64,000 nt of DNA from Terriglobia bacterium (GCA_020072565.1 JAIQGI010000014.1:16327-80326), one strand, 5' to 3'; shown: positions 25,359-46,017, numbered from the stretch's first letter. A program made the numbers and translations. Notes: generated from the letters alone by a model not told the origin.

Positions 25359-25398
25359 TTGGAGCGGGAGACGGGGAACGATCCCGCGACGTCCAGCT
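25359..25398. repeat. attL-like partial copy of the tRNA-Gly 3' half (island boundary)
   Basis: ttggagcgggagacggggaAcgaTcccgcgacgtccagct matches 45942-45981 at 38 of 40 positions. That span runs from the tRNA-Gly CCA through the T-arm and variable loop to the 3' anticodon stem. Confidence 0.6.
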
Positions 25399-26459
25399 CG
25401 AGAATTCCCTTTTAACGAATGCAGCCATTGAATCTACAACACTTGTGTTTCATAAGACACAACAAGCTCGCAAAAAAGTAGCGGAAACGCAACCCCCGCG
25501 CTACCCAAACTGACAGGATTCGCATAGAACACTAATTGCGATCGCAAGAGAAACGTTAGCGGCTGTGGCCTGCTTCCAGAGGGGATACAGTCTGTCGAGG
25601 CTGCCGCGATCTTGTATGTCGCCCGTGTCACGATTCACATCGCAGGGCGCGCCAAGCGCAGAGTTGGGCGACATCTCCACGGACGGGACCTCTGACCCGC
25701 TTCGCGGAATTTATATCTACGAATGCGTTATACAGCCTGTGACCGAGCTGAACTGTTGCCCGCTTGGTTTCTGAGCGCAAAGGCGTCCAGGCTGGCGTCC
25801 ACTTTTTGGCTGATGCGGTAGATCCGCTTGCCTTCATGGCAGAGTTGCGGAGAGCTGGGGTCGAGCAGACCGAGAACTTTGAATCTTGGGATTGAATAAA
25901 ACCCCCCGGATTGCTTTTGATAACAGGCCATTTCACCACCTACCATGAGCGCCGTCGAAGCCCGGGACGCGTCCACTCGGATGGTCAGTCGGCAGGCCAG
26001 ACAAGTTGCCCGTGCGGCCCAACTTCCAGAAAGTGAGCAAAAAGACTTAGGGATTTTACGTACGGACCTGAGGACCCGGGAGGAGGGCAGACGAGCGGAG
26101 GCTTGGCGCGGGCATTGATCGAATACGCGGCTTGTCCTCCCTATTCGGAATGACGGGGTGTCGGCGCCGGCGTGCGCCAATCGGGATCTGTCCCTGTCAG
26201 TTGCCTCAGAATCACCTTGGTTTCATTAATCAGCCGATTGCTCCGACCTTTTGCGGTTACGGCAATTAACATCACAAAGCGCCCCTCCTGTTGTGATTCA
26301 CGCCAACCCCAGCCGGGGAATCCTCTCTCGAGCAGTTTCTACTCAGGCTGGTGGGTAAGGGATAGGTTTATTCCTGCTTTTGAGCCGAGAAAATCCTGAG
26401 GTGGATTGGTAAAAGCTCCGGCGTGTTTCCTACGTGGTGGTGGGTCGAAAGAGGGAGTG

Positions 26460-27824
26460 ATGGGGATAGCATCAATTGAACAAATTGAATGCGAGCCTCG
26501 TATCTATATGCATCTCTGTGCCAGCGAGGTGTCTGTGTATCCAGCTGTCGAGTCGCCCCAAATGGATGCGAGATTTGAATGTGACCTTCGAAGCTTTGTC
26601 GGCAAATATACGGCAGTGTGGCTGAGCTCAGCCGTAGGGACTCCCACCTCAGCAATGACATATACCGCTTCGGCGCAGCGCAGAAACGAGCGCAATACAG
26701 ACCTCTTGATCGACTCCATGGAAAAGGAATTGCGGAACTACCCGTCACGGCCGCGGGAGCAGTCAGGCTGGCGTGAGCGCATTTTCGTAACACTGCGCCA
26801 GTTCGGCACGAAATCCTTCCGGTTTCCCGACAGCCATTTTGACGTTATCTTCTCTCCTGACTATTTTGCGGTTACCAGGGCTTTCGCCCGCCAGGCCCGC
26901 GCATTTGACGAGAGCATCGAGACCGACGCGCTCGCTCAAGCGCTTCGCAACGTCTGGGTCATGAACTGTTTGCAGATGTTCCTGGGCCGGCGGCCTTCGC
27001 TTTCGCCATCAGTTTTCGCTTACAGCATGCTCTATCCATACACCGATAACCACCTCGACCAGCCGAAACTGCCCTACGAGACGAAACGGATGGCGTGCCG
27101 GCGCTTGGGACTTCGTCTTTCAGGCCGGAATATCGAGCCTTGCGATGCGCATGAAGCTGCCGTTTTCCGGCTCGTTGAGATGATCGAAGGCGAATACCCG
27201 CGCGCTACTTCCCCGGAGGTCTACTCGAGTCTTCTGGCGATCCATGCCGGGCAGGTGAAAAGCCTGGGCCAGCAGCACACGCCCTTCGCTCCGGATGAAA
27301 CAACCCTCCTGCGGATCAGCGTTGAGAAAGGAGGCTCCTCTGTCCTCGCCGACGGCTGGCTTGTGGGGGGCGAAATGAGGAGAGCGGAGGCCGATTTCTT
27401 CTTTGGTTTCGGCGTCATGCTTCAGCTGCTCGACGACCTGCAGGACCTACCCGATGACCGCAATGCCGGGCACTGGACTTTATTCACGCGCACGGCCTCG
27501 GCGGAATGCCTGGACCGTCACACCAGCCAGCTCTGGCATTTCGTACACAACGTGCTCGATTCAAGGGGCTGCCTCGCCGATTCCCACGGTCTCGAACTGC
27601 GAGATCTGATCCGCCGCAACAGCACGATACTGTTGCTACGGGCCATGGCAGAAAGCGCAGGCTACTATTCCGCCGATTATGTGCACCACATGGAACGGTT
27701 TTCCCCTCTGAGTTTTGCCTTCCTGCGGGACCGTCGCGTAGCCATCGAAAAGAGATTCGCCAGAATCTGGCCACCGCTGGCGCGCCGGCGAAAGCTGCGC
27801 TCGATCTTCGATCTCCTGGGCTGA
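26460..27824 (+). CDS. hypothetical protein with Asp-rich LQLLDDLQDLPDD motif (possible divergent isoprenoid-synthase-like fold)
   Basis: The ~455-aa product, taken from the internal Met MGIASIEQ, is helical. GVMLQLLDDLQD resembles the second Asp-rich motif (FQxxDDxxD) of trans-prenyl synthases, and a degenerate TDNHLD lies ~125 aa upstream. No confident family assignment was made. Confidence 0.45.
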   Translation: MGIASIEQIECEPRIYMHLCASEVSVYPAVESPQMDARFECDLRSFVGKYTAVWLSSAVGTPTSAMTYTASAQRRNERNTDLLIDSMEKELRNYPSRPREQSGWRERIFVTLRQFGTKSFRFPDSHFDVIFSPDYFAVTRAFARQARAFDESIETDALAQALRNVWVMNCLQMFLGRRPSLSPSVFAYSMLYPYTDNHLDQPKLPYETKRMACRRLGLRLSGRNIEPCDAHEAAVFRLVEMIEGEYPRATSPEVYSSLLAIHAGQVKSLGQQHTPFAPDETTLLRISVEKGGSSVLADGWLVGGEMRRAEADFFFGFGVMLQLLDDLQDLPDDRNAGHWTLFTRTASAECLDRHTSQLWHFVHNVLDSRGCLADSHGLELRDLIRRNSTILLLRAMAESAGYYSADYVHHMERFSPLSFAFLRDRRVAIEKRFARIWPPLARRRKLRSIFDLLG

Positions 27825-27941
27825 TGGCATGGGAGCATTTGACTGGAGCGTAGTGTTTTTCTGCGTTTGAGATCACCCGAGATCCAGGAATGCCGGAAAC
27901 CACTTTCGCTGTGCCAAACGGATGTCGATTTGGGCAATCCC

Positions 27942-28238
27942 TTACTTTATCGCATGCAATGCCTGACGGATTGCCTGAACATCGACCAACCGGCCTGAGC
28001 TGAACCGATAGAGGATGCTCGAAATTAATGTTTGATACGGAAGCCCCTCATCGGCGGCTCTTTTCCTCAGGTTTTCGAGCACAACCTCACTGAGCCGCAG
28101 GCTGATGGTTTTCGTCTTTCCTGCGGCCCGCAGAATTCGCTCTTTCTCGGCGGGCTCTACCGGCAAAAACTCTTCTAAAGAGTCTTCTATTTTTTGTTCA
28201 TACCTGTCAAGTTTTGGCCTACTTCGCTTTTTTGCCAT
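27942..28238 (-). CDS. brnA: BrnA-family antitoxin (RHH/CopG-like)
   Basis: A C-terminal segment (ISLRLSEVVLENLRKRAADEGLPYQTLISSILYRF) is typical of BrnA. The gene overlaps brnT by 20 nt, the classic toxin-first brnTA layout. Confidence 0.65.
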   Translation of the reverse strand: MAKKRSRPKLDRYEQKIEDSLEEFLPVEPAEKERILRAAGKTKTISLRLSEVVLENLRKRAADEGLPYQTLISSILYRFSSGRLVDVQAIRQALHAIK

Positions 28239-44529: not shown

Positions 44530-45444
44530 ATGAAAAGAATCCTGGCTGTTGCTGTCATGTTGTTGTTTATGGGGATCCTGCCTGCGGAGGATACCATGCA
44601 GTTCACCGATTGGTCTGCCCCCGTAAGCCTGGGACCCACTGTCAACTCCGGTTACAACGATAGAGACCCGACCATCTCAAAAAGCGGATTGAGCCTCTAC
44701 TTTGGGTCAGATCGGCCTGATCCCAATGCCCAGGGCGGTTTTGACATCTATGTGTCCCAACGGGACAGTCTTGAGGATCCATGGGAAGCCCCGGTCAATC
44801 TCGGCACGACGATCAACGGCCCGTACCACGAAGACGACACGGCCTTCTCGCCCGACGGGCACTGGTTGGTTTTCACCAGTGATCGCCCCCATGGATGTGG
44901 CGGCATGGACCTGTGGATCTCGCACCGCCAGAACAAACGCGATGATTTCGGATGGGAGACGCCGACCAACCTCGGATGCGTGGTGAATAGCGGGAATGGG
45001 GAAAATGGCCCATTTCTCATCGAAGACCAGATGACGGGCCAATTGCTTCTTTACTTTGCCAGCGACCGTGTGCTTGGCGGAACCTGGTTTGATATCTACG
45101 TCAGTTCGCTTTCCGAAGAGACGGGCACCTTCGGGCCGCCCAAACCTGTTGTCGAGTTGAATAGCGAAAAGCGCGAGTTCCAGCCGTGCCTCCGCAAGGA
45201 CGTTCTGGAGATCTTCTTCGTGAGGGGCCAGCCGGGCTTCGGTATAGATCTGTGGGTCGCGACGCGTGAAACCACTCTGGATCCGTGGTCCACGCCGGTG
45301 AACCTGACTTTGTTAAACTCAACAGCCTATGAGTACCATCCAACACTATCCTGGGATGGCACCACACTGATCTTTGCGTCCCAGCGGCTCGGGACGTTTG
45401 ATCTGTTCATGTCCACCCGGACCAAGCTCAACCCGCAGAAATAA
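44530..45444 (+). CDS. secreted TolB-like (PD40/WD40-like beta-propeller repeat) protein
   Basis: A signal peptide precedes repeated PD40-like units (D..Y.S.R..G..D.W.S.R; F..DG..L.F.SDR). Confidence 0.6.
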   Translation: MKRILAVAVMLLFMGILPAEDTMQFTDWSAPVSLGPTVNSGYNDRDPTISKSGLSLYFGSDRPDPNAQGGFDIYVSQRDSLEDPWEAPVNLGTTINGPYHEDDTAFSPDGHWLVFTSDRPHGCGGMDLWISHRQNKRDDFGWETPTNLGCVVNSGNGENGPFLIEDQMTGQLLLYFASDRVLGGTWFDIYVSSLSEETGTFGPPKPVVELNSEKREFQPCLRKDVLEIFFVRGQPGFGIDLWVATRETTLDPWSTPVNLTLLNSTAYEYHPTLSWDGTTLIFASQRLGTFDLFMSTRTKLNPQK

Positions 45445-45586
45445 TTCATGTTCTGCGGGTACTCACGTGCCGGGAGAACAAAAAACGATATACGAATCCA
45501 TGATTGCCGTTCGTCCTTACCTCCGTCCGACCACGCCGGAAGTTCGAGGGCGTCGGGTCGGCGGAGGTGAAGGGACGTCCAGATAG

Positions 45587-45898
45587 GTGACCTTCGATGA
45601 AGTCCGTTTGATGTTATCGGTACTGGATGTTCGGGAACAGCTAATTTCGAGGCTCGCGGTACTTGCCGGGAGGAGGAGTTCCCTTCCGAGGTTGAGGGCG
45701 GTTGGACGGGCGTGGGCAAACTTCCAAGTCATGCGGAGGACCCACAGTTCTCTGTCGAAGGAGCTTGACGTCGATCCGCATATCCGGGCGGAGCAAATGG
45801 GGCATAGCGTCGATGTAAACGAGAACGTTTATACGATTACTTCGATCCACCGCCGCAAGGAAGCCGTCAATGCCCTCGATTCGGTGATTGAGGCTTAA
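45587..45898 (+). pseudogene. remnant C-terminal fragment of a tyrosine integrase
   Basis: Only ~100 aa are retained, with a catalytic-core-like segment (RAVGRAWANFQVMRRTHSSLSKELDVDPHIRAEQMGHSVDVNENVYT; HxxR...GH...Y). No N-terminal domains are present upstream. The fragment ends 44 nt from the tRNA-Gly 3' end. Confidence 0.5.
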
Positions 45899-45942
45899 TG
45901 GACTCTACGAATTCGGGGTGTCTGTAACTCGTTGAAAAGATT

Positions 45943-46017
45943 GGAGCGGGAGACGGGGATCGAACCCGCGACGTCCAGCTTGGGAAGCTGGCATTCTACC
46001 GCTGAATTACTCCCGCA
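45943..46017 (-). tRNA. tRNA-Gly (anticodon CCC)
   Basis: The reverse-complement folds as a cloverleaf. It has a gcgggag acceptor, a D-arm (attc-agcggta-gaat), an anticodon arm (ccagc-ttCCCaa-gctgg), a T-arm (gcggg-ttcgatc-cccgt), and an acceptor 3' strand ctcccgc followed by t and CCA. Confidence 0.85.

Follow-up and report, generated by a model that had tools for sequence, protein, structure and literature searches.

The window considered here is a stretch of 64,000 nucleotides (nt) from a Terriglobia bacterium (GCA_020072565.1, JAIQGI010000014.1:16327-80326), in which all positions are counted from its first letter; it corresponds to part of a 129-kb metagenome contig (ENA ERZ27247926 k141_103195). 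Near its middle, on the minus strand, lies a tRNA-Gly(CCC) gene (45942-46016), which is called by ARAGORN and by Rfam (RF00005, 65.5 bits), looks functional, and matches at 75 of 75 positions the native gene that relatives have downstream of kdsD. Two blocks of DNA adjoin it, which we call island A (25359-45981), on the 3′ side of the gene, and element B (46017-56550), on the 5′ side. Read along the minus strand, the order is kdsD, the native promoter-like site, a displaced 5′ fragment of the tRNA, element B, the full tRNA-Gly, island A, a displaced 3′ fragment of the tRNA, and a gene for a TPR protein. Very probably, island A is a decayed tRNA-Gly island and element B inserted independently into the 5′ end of tRNA-Gly.

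Two displaced fragments of tRNA-Gly

An earlier note on this DNA had described a 20.6-kb island bounded by a 40-nt direct repeat of the 3′ half of the tRNA. Self-BLASTN of the window recovers the repeat, with 38 of 40 positions identical (E 2e-10) between 25359-25398 and 45941-45980; the second interval had been placed one base off, at 45942-45981, and the first matched base of the repeat lies 1 nt past the CCA end of the tRNA. With up to three mismatches permitted, the 40-mer occurs at two sites only in the window, and it is found in none of 100 dinucleotide-preserving shuffles. Under looser scoring, with relatives as queries, the repeat extends to 25404 (about 42 of 46 positions) and takes in the anticodon loop, starting at its 5′ edge, and the rest of the tRNA through the CCA plus 1 nt. 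The displaced 3′ fragment at the far end of island A (25359-25404, minus strand, core 25359-25398) is co-oriented with the full tRNA-Gly and lies downstream of it; neither ARAGORN nor Rfam calls it as a tRNA.

The two mismatches in the core, at 45960 and 45964, set TTCGA in the tRNA against ATCGT in the fragment, that is, an exchange of T54 and A58, and the symmetrical swap within the T-loop that the earlier note had recognised is real. When all fetched loci and IMG/VR were searched, matches to the swapped T-loop, GGGATCGTTCCCC, were confined to contigs identical to the window. The normal T-loop is present in the native tRNA-Gly of all relatives, and likewise in an attP-like fragment on a viral contig (L177) that is described below. 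The exchange may be the result of decay, or it may be a variant that the element brought with it.

Between the cargo of island A and the tRNA, convergent with the latter and 43 nt from its 3′ end, is a tyrosine-integrase pseudogene (45437-45898, plus strand). Compared with its relatives, it has lost the N-terminal ~125 amino acids (aa), has an in-frame stop, and has suffered an internal deletion of ~90 aa that took the box I arginine, while the HxxR, GHS, and Y elements are kept. The C-terminal remnant of an integrase that had been reported close to the tRNA is the open reading frame (ORF) 45587-45898 of this pseudogene, which reads VMRRTH...GHS...Y; it has no Pfam match at E<=0.01, but shares 76% identity with the C-terminal part of an integrase beside tRNA-Gly in a related contig (L124). 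That integrase of L124 (9999-11040), the closest relative of the one in island A, is itself split into two overlapping ORFs and may also be a pseudogene. The only other tyrosine recombinases inside island A, one intact and one truncated, both belong to IS91-type modules. Since the integrase has lost its N-terminus and box I arginine, and the original cargo can no longer be recognised, island A would no longer be able to excise alone; we infer that it is an old, immobilised island of mobile DNA in the 3′ half of tRNA-Gly.

On the other side of the gene, the earlier note had placed kdsD (56722-57696) in a core neighbourhood reaching from the TPR gene to kdsD. This does not hold, as 10.5 kb of integrative DNA (element B, minus strand) lie between kdsD and the tRNA, with an intact integrase and bounded by a repeat of the 5′ end of the tRNA. 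The displaced 5′ fragment (56551-56574, minus strand) corresponds to tRNA positions 1-24 and matches 45993-46016 at 23 of 24 positions, the first 21 being identical; the 24-mer was found in none of the shuffles, and a weak similarity runs on to about 56537. The fragment lies 195 nt upstream of the element B integrase (55246-56355, minus strand), in the same orientation. This integrase, of 369 aa, is complete, with Phage_integrase, SAM_5, and arm-binding domains, and NCBI assigns it to an Acidobacteriia/Terriglobia MAG. Within 46017-56550 there are also a 232-aa ORF, an excisionase-like gene with an HTH_17 domain (54200-54487), a primase with a CHC2 zinc finger (53084-53620), a DUF3987 helicase-like gene (51711-53087), TerS (50625-51101), a TerL of the lambda gpA type (48713-50656), and small ORFs to which no family could be assigned. 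No capsid or tail genes were seen in element B. Three copies of the element from other samples (L008, L010, and L013) differ from the window over 47000-48800 in having an additional gene of 46 aa and, where the window has a 139-aa minus-strand ORF, a gene of 186 aa; these differences in small ORFs indicate that element B is polymorphic between populations.

A tandem motif, TTGTTGTACATTTGTTGCACG, is present at 46064-46086 (minus strand), with a second copy at 56418-56440, near the element B integrase. In the general form TTGTTGTAC(A/C)(A/T)TTGTTG(T/C), it stands near both ends of element B and also near both ends of a related element in L184 (~2010-2030 and ~11570-11595). These motifs are probably arm-type binding sites of the integrase. 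Given the intact integrase, the excisionase-like gene, and the clean core, element B may still be mobile.

The native promoter-like site of the tRNA, TTGACT-18-TAGTAT (56595-56624, minus strand), which is conserved in relatives, has remained joined to the 5′ fragment and is now directed at the element B integrase. A promoter scan found no consensus promoter upstream of the working tRNA within element B. The 5′ ~20–24 nt of the working gene lie within the repeat block of element B and its 3′ ~40–45 nt within that of island A, leaving positions about 25–31 as the sole part outside both. Several Logan contigs end inside the tRNA, but we judged them uninformative, because tRNA sequences that are shared across community members break assembly graphs.

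Empty sites and relatives of the two integrases

Relatives of the locus were sought by scanning JGI metagenomes with KdsD, and the contigs used here have KdsD proteins 77–89% identical to that of the window. In seven of them (L094, L098, L104, L105, L107, L108, and L114), the site is empty: kdsD is followed by a spacer of 57–120 nt, tRNA-Gly(CCC) with 75 of 75 positions identical, a small gene homologous to window 21812-22144, and tRNA-Val, beyond which tRNA-Ala is found in L094, L105, and L108, the contigs that reach that far. Since the window has a tRNA-Ala at 18949 and a tRNA-Val at 21532, the empty sites represent the same neighbourhood without the inserts. The spacer of the relatives aligns to window 56575-56637, and not to 46017-46100, so that element B is absent there; for L094, the aligned segments are 11008-11105 of the contig, in the kdsD–tRNA spacer, and 56637-56537 of the window. 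The empty site that the earlier note had expected was one in which the TPR gene lies directly next to tRNA-Gly. All seven relatives are uninterrupted, but no TPR gene stands beside their tRNA-Gly. Together with the full tRNA, the co-oriented 3′ fragment, and the eroded cognate integrase, these sites bear out the proposal that the island is integrated at the tRNA.

Relatives of the island A integrase, 42–77% identical, are found in the same convergent arrangement, 57–115 nt after a tRNA-Gly(CCC), in L110, L116, L124, L176, L178, and L179. L176 to L179 are contigs from IMG/VR. In the viral contig L177, a 44-nt piece containing only tRNA positions 30–73 lies about 105 nt after the integrase stop, and this piece looks like the form that would be expected of an attP. 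The relatives thus support a phage-type element with an anticodon-centred site as the source of island A. In L116, the order is kdsD, 96 nt, tRNA-Gly, and an A-type integrase, with no element B; because this contig carries an A-type integrase without B, island A and element B are independent insertions. Other integrases have used the same gene. A 422-aa ORF that abuts tRNA-Gly in L099 (5310-6745) matches tyrosine recombinases by tblastn, though not the island A remnant, and L100 (11005-17337) and L102 have a 6.2-kb island bounded by a 46-nt 3′ fragment (positions 30–75, one mismatch). The tRNA-Gly(CCC) gene downstream of kdsD is, therefore, a hot spot in relatives for several types of integrase.

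Relatives of the element B integrase were collected by scanning GTDB with a family alignment of the integrase and by looking up close homologues; a search of IMG/VR gave none. In 11 further loci (L014–L021, L181–L183, and L185), with integrases 44–83% identical, the integrase is paired with a 5′ fragment in the same way as in the window, tRNA-Gly positions 1–20/24 being found 190–330 nt upstream of the integrase with no full tRNA there. The labels of these loci are Acidobacteriota, Acidimicrobiia, and Chlorobiaceae. In L018, a complete chromosome of 6.9 Mb, the full tRNA-Gly(CCC) is 9 kb downstream, and the intervening element has in common with B the integrase, the excisionase-like gene, and the att region only, its other cargo being different.

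One relative is not at a tRNA. In L184 (GCA_975960015.1, contig CDLSVZ010000323.1), an element at 1871-11650, with an integrase 74% identical to that of B, lies between a gene for a FAD oxidase and a gene for a CCG-domain protein, and is flanked by the 12-nt repeat ATATAGTCGTTG. Its element-side core, GGAGTAATATAGTCGTTGAAT, resembles the 5′ end of tRNA-Gly, which suggests that the site specificity of this integrase has shifted to a non-tRNA site. With the window, the 11 loci having a 5′ fragment, and L184 with its shifted site, 13 loci with a B-type integrase are available.

Origin of the arrangement

An account of the locus must be built from what was observed, namely the two repeats, the genes present, the empty sites in relatives, and the repeated pairing of each type of integrase with its tRNA fragment. 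Where the crossovers took place, which insertion came first, how the tRNA is expressed, and whether element B can move we infer from these observations. We propose that island A began as an integrative, probably phage-derived element that would have entered tRNA-Gly(CCC) through its tyrosine integrase. Its attP would have included the anticodon loop of the tRNA and the rest of the gene 3′ of it, and integration would have rebuilt the tRNA beside the integrase while shifting the old 3′ part 20.6 kb away. Later, the integrase would have decayed, the original cargo would have become unrecognisable, and two IS91-type modules would have landed inside. Independently, element B would have inserted at the other end of tRNA-Gly, its clade carrying the first 20–24 nt of the gene in the attachment site; in doing so, it would have moved the original 5′ end and promoter of the gene to the kdsD side, and it would now supply new upstream sequence to the working gene. 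Since each attP would have carried the part of the tRNA that was displaced, the gene would have been intact after each insertion, and the present gene would be a mosaic.

An anticodon-loop crossover had been drawn from the start of the repeat in the 3′ anticodon stem. That start moves to the 5′ edge of the loop when the repeat is extended as described above, and the limits of a repeat do not tell where the crossover took place. For island A, the anticodon loop or its vicinity is nevertheless a plausible place, because the repeat block starts at the loop and L177 carries positions 30–73.

For element B, we propose tentatively, at somewhat less than even confidence, that its integrase and those of its relatives form a clade, found in Acidobacteriota and neighbouring phyla, that crosses over within the first 20–24 nt of tRNA-Gly(CCC), in the acceptor stem and D arm, and so replaces the 5′ end of the gene together with its promoter. 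On this view, the working tRNA would be a mosaic that owes its 5′ end and its transcription to one element and perhaps its 3′ part to another. The native promoter, now orphaned, would in that case direct transcription toward the integrase.

Several points weigh against this account. The cargo of island A has nothing in common with any other fetched locus and includes no recognisable phage or conjugation genes; since the cargo lacks phage genes and matches no related elements, it is the integrase alone that would indicate what island A originally was. The contrast in composition between island and flanks that had been suggested as a check does not set the island apart, its guanine-plus-cytosine (GC) content being 0.567 and that of the flanks 0.58–0.59; the signal in GC and tetranucleotide profiles is too weak to decide on a boundary, and element B is likewise not separated from the flanks by composition. 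Only in the window and in L018 can a B-type element be seen with its two ends. All contigs that encode identical helicase, terminase, kdsD, or TPR proteins have the same arrangement; none of these same-species contigs lacks A or B, and neither excision nor polymorphism was seen among them, so that both look fixed in the sampled populations. Finally, relative to the empty sites, the inserted DNA reaches 3.2 kb past the 3′ fragment. The gene for the TPR protein TPR809 (22923-25352, minus strand) and a 203-aa gene (22253-22864, minus strand), both outside the repeat-bounded island, are missing from seven of seven empty sites, where homology resumes at about 22080-22144. Because of this, the 3′ fragment may not be the outermost boundary of the foreign DNA, and the TPR side, like the kdsD side, does not belong to the core neighbourhood in which the earlier note had put it.

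The last of these points leads to the alternative that survives best, in which the 3′ side of the tRNA holds a tandem array: the fragment at 25359 would be an internal junction, and 22253-25352 would be the remnant of an older island whose distal fragment has decayed. Besides the lack of TPR809 and its 203-aa neighbour at all seven empty sites, it is favoured by the composition of the 22253-25352 block, the most deviant in the window (GC 0.611, tetranucleotide r 0.82), by the length of the stretch just downstream of tRNA-Gly, which varies from 0.1 to 1.9 kb among relatives, and by the several integrase types at this hot spot (L099, L100/L102). However, the TPR block contains no integrase remnant and no third tRNA fragment; at 22100-22330, where the latter was looked for, the best local alignment of the tRNA falls below that of control regions. 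TPR proteins are, moreover, common chromosomal genes, and the kdsD of the nearest relatives is only 89% identical, so that a lineage-specific gain or loss is equally possible. We consider an older island on this side conceivable but unlikely.

Far less likely is that B, the tRNA, and A form a single element of 31 kb which broke the native gene in two at the anticodon loop and has, in its middle, a complete replacement tRNA-Gly of its own. The fragment on the kdsD side is weakly similar to the tRNA up to about position 38 and the fragment on the TPR side starts at about 32–38, so that the two could be read as halves of one gene. Against this, the fragments paired with B-type integrases in 11 loci end at position 20–24 and not at the anticodon loop, the B-type element of L018 ends at the tRNA and has other cargo, in L116 an A-type integrase stands at a tRNA with native spacing and B is absent, and the integrase remnant of island A abuts the tRNA. 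Least credible of all is the notion that the 40-mer is a chance match or a dispersed tRNA-like pseudogene and that the genes between the copies are ordinary variable chromosome, since, although there is no compositional break and no intact cognate integrase, and copies were searched for in 64 kb of the genome only, the match is far above chance, consists of an end fragment in the correct orientation and on the correct side, and is accompanied by a cognate integrase pseudogene abutting the tRNA and by an uninterrupted site in relatives.

Cargo, significance, and known systems

The cargo region of island A extends from 25405 to 45436, between the 3′ fragment and the integrase pseudogene. A 454-aa protein with no assigned family is encoded at 26460-27824 (plus strand), followed on the minus strand by a CopG/BrnA antitoxin (27942-28238; CopG_antitoxin, 37 bits, cut-off 28) and an 88-aa ORF (28219-28485) whose match to BrnT is weak (18.4 bits against a cut-off of 34.5). 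Adjoining this antitoxin pair is a gene for a 1396-aa SF1/UvrD-like helicase with ankyrin, DUF1186, and C-terminal SEC-C domains (28738-32928, plus strand). An identity as GajB of the Gabija system was considered for this protein and rejected: the PADLOC matches are partial and confined to the UvrD core (the best 3e-12 over ~80 aa), and there is no GajA neighbour. Farther on are two regulators with OmpR-type winged-helix and TPR domains (36143-38047 and 42310-44055, both minus strand), a 178-aa protein of no assigned family (38229-38765, plus strand), and a PD40 beta-propeller protein (44530-45444, plus strand). Elsewhere in the window, self-BLAST detects a 28-nt direct repeat, 96% identical, at 62112-62139 and 63134-63161, about 1 kb apart.

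The two IS91-family elements that had been noticed in the island are present as two transposase genes, to which it must be added that each is directly preceded by a tyrosine-recombinase gene of its own, that the modules are about 50% identical, and that one is truncated. Module 1 (33341-35509, plus strand) consists of a 315-aa tyrosine recombinase (33341-34288, plus strand; Phage_integrase, 2.8e-38) and then a 401-aa Y2 HUH transposase (34304-35509, plus strand; Y2_Tnp, 3.3e-58, and Zn_Tnp_IS91, 2.8e-26). Module 2 (39701-41755, minus strand), which is degenerate and inverted relative to module 1, has a 240-aa recombinase truncated after HxxR (41033-41755, minus strand) and a Y2 transposase (39701-40954, minus strand; Y2_Tnp, 3e-65, and Zn_Tnp_IS91, 4e-27). 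The recombinases of the two modules are 53% identical and the transposases 50%. Both transposases resemble the IS91 family in having the Zn_Tnp_IS91 and Y2_Tnp domains with strong scores, and differ from it in the tyrosine-recombinase gene that precedes them; according to ISfinder, some IS91 members reportedly have such an upstream ORF.

In itself, island A is an ordinary decayed island of a known kind, borne on a tRNA gene of an uncultured acidobacterium, and nothing in its cargo points to new biology. Of greater interest are two other features of the locus: unrelated integrases have targeted tRNA-Gly from both ends, and one of them belongs to a clade directed at the 5′ end. The 13 B-type loci taken together define the attachment site of this clade, and integrases whose attB is known are candidate tools for site-specific genome engineering in phyla that are hard to work with. 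A further question posed by the locus is how a tRNA is expressed once the DNA of an element has taken the place of its promoter.

In gene content, element B resembles phage satellites of the P4-like and phage-inducible chromosomal island (PICI) types: it has ~10.5 kb, an integrase, an AlpA/excisionase-like helix-turn-helix protein, a primase/helicase, and a terminase, with no capsid or tail genes. It differs from them in having both TerS and a lambda gpA-type TerL, and no helper phage is known. Judged by these genes, element B may be a phage satellite or, equally, a truncated prophage.

In its position, the locus is best compared with the islands of the Islander collection, whose signature is a full tRNA gene, a displaced 3′ fragment, and a tyrosine integrase within a size range of 2–200 kb (PMC4383910). 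The collection comprises 3760 islands with a 3′ fragment, 2083 with anticodon-centred sites, and 125 tandems, and its crossovers are sublocated to the anticodon loop, the T loop, and the junction of T and acceptor stems (PMC4383910). Island A is like these islands in its full tRNA and co-oriented 3′ fragment, the place of its integrase remnant next to the tRNA, its repeat block starting at the anticodon loop, and its length of 20.6 kb, which is within the range; it is unlike them in that the cognate integrase is a pseudogene, no phage or conjugation genes are recognisable, two IS91-type insertions are present, and T54 and A58 are exchanged.

Islands with a 5′ fragment are a known minority class, accounting for 159 of 3919 in Islander (PMC4383910). 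Beyond these counts, the literature on IS91 with a tyrosine recombinase and on integration at tRNA 5′ ends yielded nothing specific. Element B has its 5′ fragment, oriented like the full tRNA, upstream of that tRNA, and has its integrase inside; Islander accepts this configuration for the class. Its repeat block, however, comprises positions 1–20/24, in the acceptor stem and D arm, which is outside the three named sublocations, and the element must supply the sequence upstream of the gene. As in the Islander tandem arrays, two unrelated integrative elements are found at one tRNA gene, which is a hot spot in relatives; unlike the members of those arrays, which follow one another on the 3′ side, island A and element B flank the gene, one on each side.

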